A DNA stretch of 64,000 bases, from the sequence record NC_019505.1, one strand, 5' to 3'. Origin of the DNA: Escherichia phage wV7. Shown in pieces: positions 47,505 through 52,751 of this stretch. The translations under genes and the position numbers were made by a program. The stretch's first letter is position 1. The number at the start of each line of letters is the position of its first letter. Below the pieces are notes generated by a model that did no database searches, was not told where the DNA came from, and was given only the letters and a program-made list of their open reading frames with translations.

Positions 47505-47903
47505 TTATACTCTATTACTGGAAGCCAGTTGTAGTTTTATCTGCTCAATATCATCAGGGTTATCGATGACTGAAAAGCGTATTTCTACTATCAAAGTATA
47601 ATCATCATAAACCGGTATTACATTAACTGCTAATTTATCAATACGTGGCTCATAGTTTCTTACTGCGCTTTCGATATTACGCTCAACCGTGTCAGCAGTA
47701 AGAGGAGTCATATTCTCAAAAAGTTGGTCAGATAAATCGCATCCAAATTCAGGGTCAAACGGTCTTGAACCTTTTCTTGTTGTAATAATTCCTAAAAGAC
47801 TATTTTTAATTGACCTTAATCCAAGTGATCTTGAAACGTCTTTGTTCCAATCCATTTTCATCTCTGGGTCAATATCAGAATAAAGCTTATTAATATTTGC
47901 CAT
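47505..47903 (-). CDS. 25: gp25 baseplate wedge protein
   Basis: 132 aa, T4 length and order. Confidence 0.9.
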   Translation of the reverse strand: MANINKLYSDIDPEMKMDWNKDVSRSLGLRSIKNSLLGIITTRKGSRPFDPEFGCDLSDQLFENMTPLTADTVERNIESAVRNYEPRIDKLAVNVIPVYDDYTLIVEIRFSVIDNPDDIEQIKLQLASSNRV

Positions 47904-48529
47904 TACAATAGCTCAAAGAATTCTTTGAGTCCTCTTATTACATGAGCGTGGGTTTTTCCACACTCTGGGCACTTAATTGGAACAGCCAAATAAACAGTAG
48001 GCTTTAAAAGCATATCTTTTATAGCTACAATATCTGACTCTGTGATGATAGAATATAAATCTTCCAATTCTTTTTCATTTAAGTCTTCAACTGGAATGCT
48101 TTCACCGTTAGCATGAATCGTTTCTATACATGATACTATCATGTGGGCTATATTTTTATCATCAAAAATTTTAGGGTAATGGAATTTAATTTTAATGTCA
48201 CCCAGTGTATACCAGAGGTCTTCTGGTGCATCTATTTGTGTATGTAATAGATTTATATGGGTTGGTATTTCAGTTCCACAGGTGCACTTCCAGGAGTTTT
48301 CGTGATTAACTTCTCCAAGAGAATGCGCCCATAAATGAATCAGTAATAGTTCTGATTCTTGGCGGTTTAAATCTTTTGCATTTGTGCAGTCTTTGATTAG
48401 CTTTTTAACAATTACTTCTACGGAACCATTATTTTTGGCAGTAATAAGTTCTAGATATTCTTTAAGAGTAAATGCGCGACAGTTGATTATTTTAGAACCA
48501 ACTCTCACGTCAAATTTGTATTCATACAT
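47903..48529 (-). CDS. 26: gp26 baseplate hub protein
   Basis: 208 aa, stop overlaps gene 25 start; divergent from gene 51. Confidence 0.85.
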
Positions 48530-48550: not shown

Positions 48551-48562
48551 TATTTATAAATA
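48551..48562. promoter_or_regulatory. palindromic bidirectional late promoter TATTTATAAATA (genes 26 and 51)
   Basis: 12 bp perfect palindrome containing TATAAATA on both strands in the 50 bp divergent intergenic region. Confidence 0.5.
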
Positions 48563-48579: not shown

Positions 48580-49332
48580 ATGGCAAACATTATTCGTTGT
48601 AAATTACCTGATGGTGTTCATCGTTTTAAACCATTTACGGTAGAAGATTATCGAGATTTTTTGTTAGTTCGAAACGATATAGAACATCGGTCACCACAAG
48701 AACAAAAAGAAGTAATTGCTGATTTAATTGCTGATTATTTTGGAGACTATCCAAAGACTTGGCAACCATTTATATTTTTGCAGGTATTTGTAGGGTCAAT
48801 AGGTAAAACTAAAGTACCAGTCACATTTGTATGTCCAAAATGTAAAAAAGAAAAGACAGTTCCATTTGAAATATATCAAAAAGAATTAAAGGAACCTATT
48901 TTTGATGTAGCTAATGTTAAAATTAAATTAAATTTTCCTTCTGAGTTTTATGAAAATAAAGCAAAGATGATTACTGAAAATATTCATTCTGTTCAAGTCG
49001 ATGAAATGTGGTATGATTGGAAGGAAATTAGTGAATCAAGTCAAATAGAACTTGTTGACGCCATCGAGATAGAAACATTAGAAAAAATTCTCGATGCAAT
49101 GAATCCTATTAATTTAACATTGCACATGTCGTGTTGTGATAAGTACATTAAAAAATACACTGATATAGTAGATGTGTTTAAGCTATTAGTTAATCCAGAT
49201 GAGATATTTACTTTTTATCAAATTAATCACACGCTTGTAAAAAGTAATTATAGCTTAAATTCAATAATGAAAATGATTCCTGCCGAGCGCGGATTCGTAT
49301 TAAAACTGATTGAGAAGGATAAACATCAATGA
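48580..49332 (+). CDS. 51: gp51 baseplate hub assembly protein
   Basis: 250 aa, SD GGAG, T4 order. Confidence 0.85.
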
Positions 49333-50501
49333 GTATGTTACAACGTCCTGGATATCCAAATCTCAGCGTTAAATTATTTGAGAGTTATGACGCTTGGAGT
49401 AATAATAGATTTGTTGAATTAGCTGCTACTATTACCACATTAACTATGCGTGACTCTCTTTATGGTCGAAATGAAGGAATGCTACAATTTTATGATTCTA
49501 AAAACATTCATACAAAAATGGATGGAAATGAAATAATTCAGATTTCTGTAGCTAATGCAAACGATATTAATAATGTTAAAACCCGAATTTATGGATGCAA
49601 GCATTTTTCCGTGTCAGTAGATTCAAAAGGCGATAACATCATTGCTATTGAATTAGGAACTATTCATTCTATAGAAAATCTTAAATTTGGTAGACCATTT
49701 TTCCCTGATGCCGGTGAATCTATAAAGGAAATGCTTGGCGTAATTTATCAAGATCGTACATTATTAACTCCAGCGATAAATGCTATTAATGCTTATGTTC
49801 CTGATATTCCATGGACTAGCACATTTGAAAACTATTTGTCATATGTAAGAGAAGTTGCTCTAGCGGTAGGAAGCGATAAGTTCGTATTTGTATGGCAAGA
49901 CATCATGGGAGTTAACATGATGGACTATGATATGATGATAAATCAAGAACCATATCCAATGATTGTAGGTGAGCCAACTTTAATAGGTCAATTCGTCCAA
50001 GAATTGAAATATCCATTAGCATATGATTTTGTTTGGTTGACTAAATCAAACCCGCATAAACGCGATCCAATGAAAAATGCTACTATCTATGCTCATTCAT
50101 TTTTAGATTCTTCATTACCAATGATTACTACAGGAAAGGGTGAAAACTCTATTGTAGTGTCAAGGTCAGGTGCTTATTCTGAAATGACTTATAGAAATGG
50201 ATATGAAGAAGCTATTCGTCTTCAGACTATGGCGCAGTATGATGGTTACGCTAAATGTTCTACTGTCGGTAATTTTAACTTGACTCCTGGCGTTAAAATT
50301 ATTTTTAATGATAGTAAAAACCAATTTAAAACAGAATTTTACGTTGATGAAGTTATTCACGAATTATCAAATAATAATTCCGTAACTCATCTTTATATGT
50401 TCACTAATGCAACGAAACTGGAAACAATCGACCCAGTTAAGGTTAAAAATGAATTTAAAACTGATACTACCACTGAAGAAAGTAGTTCTTCCGATAAGTA
50501 A
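49329..50501 (+). CDS. 27: gp27 baseplate hub protein
   Basis: 390 aa [28 protein letters not shown]..., ATGA overlap with gene 51. Confidence 0.9.
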
Positions 50502-50982
50502 TAAAGAGGTTTCTATTCCTAAGATGGGTCTTAAACATTATAACATTTTAAAAGATGTTAAAGGTCCTGATGAAAATTTAAAGCTTCTTATTGATTCTAT
50601 TTGTCCAAATTTATCACCGGCAGAAGTTGATTTCGTTTCTATTCATTTGCTAGAATTTAATGGAAAGATTAAATCTCGTAAAGAAATAGATGGTTATACT
50701 TATGATATTAATGACGTTTATGTATGCCAAAGATTGGAATTTCAATACCAAGGAAATACATTTTATTTTAGACCTCCTGGAAAATTTGAACAATTTTTAA
50801 CTGTAAGCGATATGTTATCCAAATGCTTGCTTAAGGTCAATGATGAAGTTAAAGAAATTAATTTTCTTGAGATGCCAGCATTTGTTTTAAAATGGGCAAA
50901 TGATATTTCTACAACTTTAGCAATTCCTGGCCCTAATGGTCCAATAACCGGAATTGGCAATATTATTGGATTATTTGAATGA
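50449..50982 (+). CDS. 28: gp28 baseplate hub distal subunit
   Basis: ATG at 50449 with AAGG upstream gives 177 aa; overlaps 3' end of gene 27 out of frame; an in-frame ATG at 50407 is also possible. Confidence 0.75.
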
Positions 50983-52751
50983 AAAAGCCACAAGAAATGC
51001 AAACGATGCGTAGAAAAGTTATTTCAGATAATAAACCAACACAGGAAGCGGCTAAATCCGCTTCTAATACTTTATCTGGTCTTAATGACATTTCTACAAA
51101 ATTAGATGATGCTCAAGCTGCTTCTGAATTAATAGCTCAGACTGTTGAAGAAAAATCAAATGAAATAGTTGGAGCAATTGATAACGTTGAAAGCGCAGTA
51201 AGTGATACTACTGCCGGTTCTGAGTTAATTGCTGAAACTGTTGAAATTGGAAACAATATTAATAAAGAAATCGGTGAATCGCTCGGAAGCAAATTAGATA
51301 AATTAACAAGTTTACTGGAACAAAAAATTCAGACAGCTGGAATTCAGCAAACTGGAACGAGTTTAGCAGTAGTCGAAAATGCTATTCCTGTTAAAGTCGT
51401 CGAGGATGATACAGCTGAATCTGTGGGTCCTTTATTACCGGCTCCTGAAGCAGTTAATAATGATCCTGATGCTGATTTTTTCCCTACTCCTCAGCCAATT
51501 GAACCAAAACAAGAGTCTCCAGAAGAGAAGCAAAAAAGAGACGCATTTAACTTAAAATTATCTCAAGCTTTAGATAAATTAACAAAGACAGTTGATTTCG
51601 GATTTAAGAAATCTATTTCAATTACTGATAAAATATCTAGTATGCTATTTAAGTATACCGTCAGTGCTGCTATTGAAGCTGCTAAAATGGTTGCATTGAT
51701 AATGGCTGTTGTTATTGGAATAGACCTGCTGATGGTTCATTTTAAATACTGGTCAGATAAATTTTCAAAAGCCTGGGATTTATTTAGCACTGATTTTACT
51801 AAATTCTCTAGCGAAACCGGAACATGGGGTCCTTTATTACAGAGCATCTTTGATTCTATTGATGAAATTAAAAAGTTCTGGGAAGCTGGAGATTGGGGCG
51901 GATTAACAGTAGCTATTATTGAAGGGCTTGGAAGTGTTCTTTATAATTTAGGAGAGCTTATTCAATTAGGTATGGCTAAATTATCTGCAGCAATTCTTCG
52001 AGTCATTCCTGGCATGAAGGATACTGCTGATGAAGTAGAAGGAAGAGCATTAGAAAATTTCCAAAATTCTACTGGAGCATCTCTTAATAAAGAAGACCAA
52101 GAAAAAGTAGCAAATTATCAAGATAAACGAATGAATGATGATCTTGGCCCAATAGCAAAAGGATTAGACAAAATTGCGAACTGGAAAACTCGTGCATCTA
52201 ACTGGATTCGTGGTGTAGATAATAAAGAAGCATTGACTACTGACGAAGAACGTGCAGCAGAAGAAGAAAAATTAAAACAACTTTCACCGGAAGAAAGAAA
52301 AAATGCTTTAATGAAAGCTAATGAAGCTCGTGCTGCGATGATTCGTTTTGAAAAATACGCTGATTCAGCTGATATGAGCAAAGACTCGACAGTTAAATCA
52401 ATTGAAGCTGCTCATGAAGACCTTAAAAAACGAATGAATGATCCGGATTTAAATAATTCACCAGCAGTTAAAAAAGAACTTGCTTCTAGATTTGCTAAAA
52501 TTGATGCCACTTATCAAGAGCTCAAGAAAAATCAACCTGAAGCAAAACCTGAAACTTCTGCTAAATCACCAGAAGCAAAACAGGTCCAGGTGATTGAAAA
52601 GAACAAAGCACAACAAGCTCCTGTTCAACAAGCATCTCCTTCAATCAATAATACTAATAATGTTATTAAGAAAAATACTGTCGTTCATAATATGACACCT
52701 GTCACAAGCACAACTGCTCCTGGTGTATTTGGTGCGACGGGAGTTAATTAA
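50979..52751 (+). CDS. 29: gp29 tail tape-measure / baseplate hub protein
   Basis: 590 aa, ATGA overlap with gene 28, extended helical low-complexity regions. Confidence 0.9.
   Translation: MKKPQEMQTMRRKVISDNKPTQEAAKSASNTLSGLNDISTKLDDAQAASELIAQTVEEKSNEIVGAIDNVESAVSDTTAGSELIAETVEIGNNINKEIGESLGSKLDKLTSLLEQKIQTAGIQQTGTSLAVVENAIPVKVVEDDTAESVGPLLPAPEAVNNDPDADFFPTPQPIEPKQESPEEKQKRDAFNLKLSQALDKLTKTVDFGFKKSISITDKISSMLFKYTVSAAIEAAKMVALIMAVVIGIDLLMVHFKYWSDKFSKAWDLFSTDFTKFSSETGTWGPLLQSIFDSIDEIKKFWEAGDWGGLTVAIIEGLGSVLYNLGELIQLGMAKLSAAILRVIPGMKDTADEVEGRALENFQNSTGASLNKEDQEKVANYQDKRMNDDLGPIAKGLDKIANWKTRASNWIRGVDNKEALTTDEERAAEEEKLKQLSPEERKNALMKANEARAAMIRFEKYADSADMSKDSTVKSIEAAHEDLKKRMNDPDLNNSPAVKKELASRFAKIDATYQELKKNQPEAKPETSAKSPEAKQVQVIEKNKAQQAPVQQASPSINNTNNVIKKNTVVHNMTPVTSTTAPGVFGATGVN

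Follow-up and report, generated by a model that had tools for sequence, protein, structure and literature searches.

The window, which is the whole 64,000-nt stretch of Escherichia phage wV7 DNA that was analysed, carries the classical T4 baseplate-hub gene cluster in the order 26 / 51-27-28-29, as read from the ORF map, and the same order is found in Escherichia phage AR1 (Tequatrovirus). The region at about 50250-50750 matches AR1 at 100%, and identity of this same region to about 450 other records of T4-type phages is 95-99%. The genes of the cluster and the promoter motif that precedes them are the following.

47903-48529, minus strand: gene 26 (ORF map; PF12322)
48555-48562, plus strand: T4 late-promoter consensus TATAAATA upstream of gene 51, the sole plus-strand copy before 51-27-28-29
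48580-49332, plus strand: gene 51 (ORF map; PF12322)
49329-50501, plus strand: gene 27, baseplate hub protein gp27, 390 aa (ORF; PF09097, PF09096; AR1 annotation)
50449-50982, plus strand: gene 28, gp28, 177 aa, the best-supported coding region (ORF frame; PF11110; T4 reference)
50979-52751, plus strand: gene 29, tape measure (ORF map)

The domains of gp27, the family and position of gp28 and the start of gene 28 within gene 27 place the locus in the hub cluster of T4-type phages. More specifically, gp27 matches PF09097 (E=1e-139) and PF09096 (E=4e-122) (Phage-tail_1, Phage-tail_2) over residues 5-375 and is about 98% identical to the T4 gp27 chains of PDB entries 1k28 and 5iv5. gp28 matches PF11110 (Phage_hub_GP28; E=6e-107), and its gene lies directly upstream of the tape-measure gene 29. 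The stop of gene 51 and the start of gene 27 share an ATGA. The divergently encoded hub-assembly proteins gp26 and gp51 both fall into one Pfam family, PF12322 (E=4e-63 and 2e-54), and are therefore paralogues. Taken as a whole, the junction is very probably the gene 27/gene 28 junction of a T4-type phage, with gene 28 beginning at 50449 behind its own Shine-Dalgarno and with the gp28 frame alone under selection.

Geometry of the junction and its counterpart in T4

The features of the junction itself are listed below.

50407-50982, plus strand: longest ORF in the gene 28 frame, 191 aa (ORF map)
50407-50409, plus strand: upstream in-frame ATG, taken not to be the real start (no Shine-Dalgarno; TAG in relatives)
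50428-50430, plus strand: TCG codon in the gp28 frame, TAG in T4, which opens the apparently spurious 191-aa ORF
50438-50443, plus strand: gene 28 Shine-Dalgarno TAAGGT, inside gp27 Lys-Val codons, 5-6 nt before the ATG
50449-50501, plus strand: out-of-frame overlap of 53 nt (gp28 residues 1-18; gp27 residues 374-390 and the stop)
50499-50501, plus strand: gene 27 stop TAA; CAA (Gln391) in T4, whose stop comes one codon later
50524-50526, plus strand: internal Met26 of gp28, annotated as the start in SH7 and SHFML-11
50979-50982, plus strand: gene 28/29 junction ATGA, an arrangement typical of coupled genes (ORF map)

The earlier note had put the start of gene 28 at ATG 50449, within the last part of gene 27 and out of frame with it, with a product of 177 aa and an overlap of about 53 nt, and these coordinates hold. 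Reading from ATG 50449-50451 gives (50982-50449+1)/3-1 = 177 aa, and with codon starts at 50448 for gp27 and 50449 for gp28, the gp28 frame is the gp27 frame +1. The in-frame ATG at 50407, described there as lengthening the overlap, is also present and would extend it to 95 nt.

An out-of-frame overlap of genes 27 and 28 is already known in T4-type phages and is annotated in T4 (NC_000866), where gene 27 occupies 117228-118403 and gene 28 occupies 118348-118881, with an overlap of 56 nt and a gp27 of 391 aa. The window and T4 have in common the order 51-27-28-29, the Shine-Dalgarno, the ATG, the +1 frame relation and a gp28 of 177 aa, and their junction sequences are about 95% identical. They differ by a C->T change at 50499, which converts CAA to TAA in gp27 and is synonymous in gp28 (AGC->AGT, Ser); as a consequence, the overlap is shorter than in T4 (53 vs 56 nt), and so is gp27 (390 vs 391 aa). 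Residue 4 of gp28 is Lys in the window and Asn in T4.

The junction was further compared in 14 annotated phages of different genera and 46 IMG/VR contigs, which gave 45 unique junctions from at least 12 genera. The same frame relation was found in all 45, spread over Tequatrovirus, Mosigvirus, Moonvirus, Winklervirus, Dhakavirus, Jiaodavirus, Jiangsuvirus, Marfavirus, Bragavirus and others. Because the relation is kept across all of these sequences, the overlap is not a chance ORF.

Selection across the overlap and the drifting stop of gene 27

The frame under selection was read from a gap-free alignment of 30 unique sequences, covering -60 to +36 around the gene 28 ATG. Upstream of the ATG, variability is concentrated at the third positions of gp27 codons (mean entropy 1.30, vs 0.63 at position 2 and 0.86 at position 1; Mann-Whitney p=0.003), while from the ATG on it is concentrated at the third positions of gp28 codons (1.30 vs 0.26 and 0.06; p=0.0002). 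The codon periodicity thus changes frame exactly at the gene 28 ATG. Pairwise pN/pS, whose values come from mutually related sequences and are not independent samples, is 0.43 for the gp27 frame and 0.94 for the gp28 frame upstream of the ATG, and 6.7 for the gp27 frame and 0.21 for the gp28 frame in the overlap. The third positions of gp27 are near-invariant in the overlap because they are the second positions of gp28 codons.

As judged from these substitution patterns, purifying selection in the overlap is seen for the gp28 frame alone, and the gp27 tail appears as a passenger. By the same evidence, what selection maintains in this stretch is the N-terminus of gp28, the Shine-Dalgarno and the ATG. 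The claim of the earlier note that both reading frames are constrained here did not survive the comparison, given the pN/pS of the gp27 frame and a gp27 stop that drifts over 29-101 nt, even within genera, by changes that are synonymous in gp28.

This drift is directly visible in the lengths of the overlap, which are 29, 38, 44, 47, 50, 53, 56, 59, 68, 89 and 101 nt among the 45 unique sequences. Between close relatives, the gp27 stop toggles through gp28-silent changes, as in the window and T4 (53 vs 56 nt), in the junctions L029 and L004 (29 vs 50 nt) and in L033 and L034 (29 vs 47 nt). In the more distant T4-like phages that were inspected, the gp27 stop adjoins the start of gp28, with a 1-nt gap in the Acinetobacter phages Melin and Stupor, a 1-nt overlap in Krischvirus MIZ2 and an ATGA in Aeromonas phage 31.2.

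We also weighed the possibility that the overlap is truly dual-coding, the C-terminal tail of gp27 being functional and under selection, and consider it distinctly unlikely. In its favour, a tail is found throughout the T4 subfamily and is always hydrophilic and rich in Ser, Thr and acidic residues. This composition (rich in Ser, Thr, Asp and Glu) is however automatic, because it results from hydrophobic NTN codons of gp28 being read one base out of frame, and the Pfam domain of gp27 extends only to residue 375, so that it does not include the last 15 residues. In none of the 45 junctions does a stop close the gp27 frame within 10 codons of the gp28 ATG, although stops in this frame average one per 7.6 codons later in gene 28, and this could hint at a minimum length of the gp27 tail; it is equally well explained by shared ancestry of the first nine, conserved codons of gp28. 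The pN/pS of the gp27 frame speaks against function in the tail, as does the length of the tail, in which close relatives differ by 1-24 residues owing to changes that are silent in gp28. Overprinted, dual-coding regions of viruses resemble the present case in that the same nucleotides specify two proteins through different frames. The junction differs from them in that one frame only, that of gp28, shows purifying selection, and the gp27 part, a short extension at the C-terminus that varies in length, does not amount to a second functional domain.

The simplest account of the overlap is that it arose incidentally from a stop codon that drifts. The gp27 frame would simply run on beyond the start of gp28 until a stop is met, and the overlap would be the result. 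In the T4 subfamily, the gp27 stop lies 29-101 nt past the gp28 start, and the abutting layout of the distant relatives may be the ancestral one.

Start codon of gene 28

Support for the gp28 start that the earlier note had favoured, ATG 50449, comes from the conservation of the ATG with its Shine-Dalgarno, from the switch of frame at this codon and from the annotation of T4. A (T)AAGG lies 5-6 nt before the homologous ATG in all junctions of the T4-subfamily type but one (45 unique), the lone exception, L036, having a weakened CGAG at the Shine-Dalgarno position. For ATG 50449, the duplex of the Shine-Dalgarno with the 3' end of 16S RNA has a predicted energy of -3.9 kcal/mol. The AAGG is invariant among the 30 unique sequences, which were chosen by the pattern AAGGTNAAAAATGA. 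The block AAGGTNAAAAATGAANTTAAA and the N-terminus of gp28 are kept in 49 of the approximately 60 loci fetched (30 unique), while the 40 nt upstream are highly variable, and the conserved N-terminus reads MNL(K/N)LILP(L/I)KK. A note in the T4 reference record (NC_000866) states that the N-terminal sequence of the gp28 hub subunit was determined by F. Arisaka et al. N-terminal sequencing had been proposed in the earlier note as a check on the start; what that record reports of it concerns T4 gp28 and not the protein of wV7.

Public records nevertheless give three lengths for gene 28: 191 aa (AR1, AP011113), 177 aa (T4, U115) and 152 aa (SH7 KX828711, SHFML-11 NC_030953). The 191-aa and 152-aa versions look like artefacts of gene callers, arising from a preference for the longest ORF and from avoidance of overlaps, and each of them corresponds to a rival start that was examined in turn.

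In the first, which is the version of the AR1 GenBank record, gp28 would begin at ATG 50407, giving 191 aa and an overlap of 95 nt. The reading frame that begins at 50407 is indeed open in both the window and AR1, the window sequence over 50400-50451 recurs unchanged in 73 of 455 Tequatrovirus records, and an in-frame ATG with this offset, likewise open, is present in phages of the Dhakavirus type. Several observations make this start highly improbable all the same. ATG 50407 has no Shine-Dalgarno (+1.5 kcal/mol), and seven codons past it an in-frame TAG is found in T4 and in 10 of the 10 other non-AR1 Tequatrovirus loci inspected; at 50428-50430 the TAG of T4 and the TCG of the window differ by a change that is synonymous in gp27 (ATA->ATC). 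In many genera, a TGA or TAA stands two codons (-6) before the true gene 28 ATG. Upstream of 50449, the gp28 frame is without coding signal, as its pN/pS of 0.94 and the absence of third-position periodicity (p=0.69) indicate. The ATG at 50407 itself arises incidentally where gp27 has its conserved codons for Asn-Ala/Gly (AAT GNN; here AAT GCA).

The second would have gp28 begin at Met26 (ATG 50524), past the stop of gene 27 and without overlap, or would have a 152-aa form made beside the 177-aa form. An initiation of gp28 downstream of the gene 27 stop, the outcome that the earlier note had set against its own proposal, is disfavoured: positions 50452-50523 evolve as gp28 (pN/pS 0.21, p=2e-4) and Met26 is Leu in most genera. 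Since this stretch is translated as gp28, a main start at 50524 is ruled out. For the broader proposal, which we regard as very unlikely, it can be said that several public records (SH7, SHFML-11) annotate this start, that the PF11110 model begins only at residue 23 of gp28, that an internal start, 26', is annotated in gene 26 of the same cluster, and that a GAGGT (-6.5 kcal/mol) is present upstream of 50524 in the window. This GAGGT is however 12-13 nt away from 50524 and is replaced by GAAGT (-1.0 kcal/mol) in T4. It is also the protein sequence of gp28 that the 75 nt before 50524 follow in their evolution; the length difference between genera in this part is an in-frame 6-nt indel, and the T4 annotation of a 177-aa start is backed by the N-terminal sequencing mentioned in its record. 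The GAGGT at 50506-50510 is confined to the AR1 lineage, GAAGT being found in T4 and most relatives, and it could allow a little internal initiation at Met26. Met26 is thus at most a minor internal start of gp28.

One further reading concerns the conserved A5 run at 50444-50448, on which tRNA-Lys could slip by +1 into the frame of gp28. A low-level slip on this run (GTT AAA AAT G, 50441-50451) would yield a gp27-gp28 fusion of about 550 aa, and, if true, would give T4 an equivalent of the tail-assembly chaperone fusions that other tailed phages make by frameshifting from genes upstream of the tape measure. Near the A5 run, no significant downstream structure was found in the folds and no match in Rfam, and the codon that follows, AAT, is not a stop. 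The conserved block needs no explanation beyond the Shine-Dalgarno, the spacer, the start codon and the codons of gp28, and nothing positively supports a fusion, which we consider exceedingly improbable.

Translation of gene 28 on the late mRNA

The copy of TATAAATA at 48555-48562 is followed by no other T4 late-promoter consensus on the plus strand between 48562 and gene 28, and sigma-70-like matches are below the shuffled expectation. As it is the sole late promoter before gene 51, genes 51-27-28-29 are expected on one mRNA. Between genes 26 and 51, two such motifs overlap on opposite strands, at 48551-48558 (minus) and 48555-48562 (plus). The consensus occurs 23 times in the whole window, mostly on the plus strand, vs 9.2 expected (0 of 100 shuffles reach 23).

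The initiation region of gene 28 (-30 to +20) folds with a minimum free energy of -3.1 kcal/mol (z +0.56), and the Shine-Dalgarno and the ATG are unpaired in the predicted folds. Around the gene 28 start, segments of 121 nt and 50 nt were folded and no structure beyond that of shuffled controls was detected. Searches of Rfam gave no family match, with only chance-level snoRNA matches (E about 0.7-0.8).

The earlier note had proposed that translational coupling at this junction matters for the stoichiometry of the hub, and this part of it is not borne out. Reporters in E. coli, covering overlaps to d=-25, showed that re-initiation declines beyond d=-10, and overlaps of at least 25 nt were recommended to abolish coupling (PMC4538824). 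The intergenic distance of genes 27 and 28 is d = 50449-50499-3 = -53, beyond this limit of about 25 nt and outside the range of re-initiation. The ribosome binding site of gene 28 is not sequestered in the predicted folds, and with an unstructured initiation region there is nothing for upstream ribosomes to open. Whether gp28 is a stoichiometric part of the hub is itself uncertain.

An overlap acting as a coupling device that fixes the gp27:gp28 ratio is, in our view, unlikely. Such a role would fit the co-transcription of the two genes and the retention of the overlap across the subfamily; the neighbouring 51/27 and 28/29 junctions are both ATGA, which suggests that the operon uses coupling elsewhere, and ribosomes on gene 27 must traverse the ribosome binding site of gp28 and could affect it. 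Against it stand, besides a distance beyond measurable re-initiation (PMC4538824) and the lack of an inhibitory structure to unfold in the predicted folds, the variation of the overlap over 29-101 nt even among close relatives, which is unexpected for a tuned device, and the distant relatives, in which stop and start abut or overlap by 1-4 nt instead.

In T4, amber mutants of gene 27 complement those of gene 28, and vice versa. gp28 is thus made from genomes in which gene 27 translation terminates early, which argues against an obligatory coupling. The short stop/start overlaps of coupled genes (ATGA, TAATG) are like the present junction in their co-transcription and in having the downstream ribosome binding site inside the upstream gene, and the 1- and 4-nt overlaps of the distant relatives at 27/28 resemble coupled operon genes. 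The junction of the window is unlike these pairs in its overlap of 53 nt and its unstructured start region.

We infer from this analysis that coupling from gene 27 to gene 28 is weak or absent. In the mechanism that we propose, gp28 would initiate on its own accessible TAAGG Shine-Dalgarno, located in the last codons of gene 27 on a polycistronic late mRNA, and the ribosomes that translate gene 27 would end 50 nt past the gp28 start. Termination-reinitiation from 27 to 28 would be negligible, and the synthesis of gp28 would be set mainly by de novo initiation.

At the next junction, the initiation region of gene 29 (window positions 50949-50998) is predicted to form a hairpin over the start (MFE -7.9 kcal/mol, z -1.97) and has a weak Shine-Dalgarno (-3.1 kcal/mol). 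By these predicted folds, gene 29 looks dependent on the translation of gene 28, unlike gene 28 on gene 27.

gp28 in the tail and the meaning of the overlap

A review of the tail from 2010 (PMC3004832) describes the presence and the copy number of gp28 in the tail as uncertain, and its standing as a stoichiometric hub component is likewise uncertain here. In a full-text search for the start, function or proteomics of gp28, this review was the sole relevant source, the other matches to gp28 belonging to unrelated phages. A search of the PDB by sequence returned no gp28 chain, including in the T4 baseplate entries that contain gp27. In some recent records (Acinetobacter phage Stupor, L014 1150-1698; phage AM101, H86), the homologue of gp28 is entered as 'tape measure protein assembly chaperone' instead of 'baseplate hub distal subunit'. 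The chaperone name fits, because the gene sits directly upstream of the tape-measure gene and the protein is absent from the solved baseplate structures.

Two of the sampled loci carry a shortened gp28. In one of them (L021 842-896; IMGVR_UViG_2974742932_000001, 169,650 nt), gene 28 contains a 55-nt tandem duplication (GGCTATACTTATGAC...TTTCAAT repeated) that shifts the frame and leaves a gp28 of 103 aa in a genome that is otherwise T4-like, which reflects either a gene that is defective or an artefact of assembly. In the other (L048), gp28 has 142 aa.

In conclusion, the junction opens no new biology of the baseplate hub, and its value lies elsewhere. For annotation, the comparative evidence together with the N-terminal note of T4 shows that the 177-aa gp28 alone is correct and provides a rule for fixing T4-like records. 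For the evolution of overlapping genes, it may serve as a textbook-like case of how an overlap without function originates, in which a stop is lost or moved, the upstream protein gains a disordered tail from the codons of its neighbour and the frame of this neighbour alone is selected.
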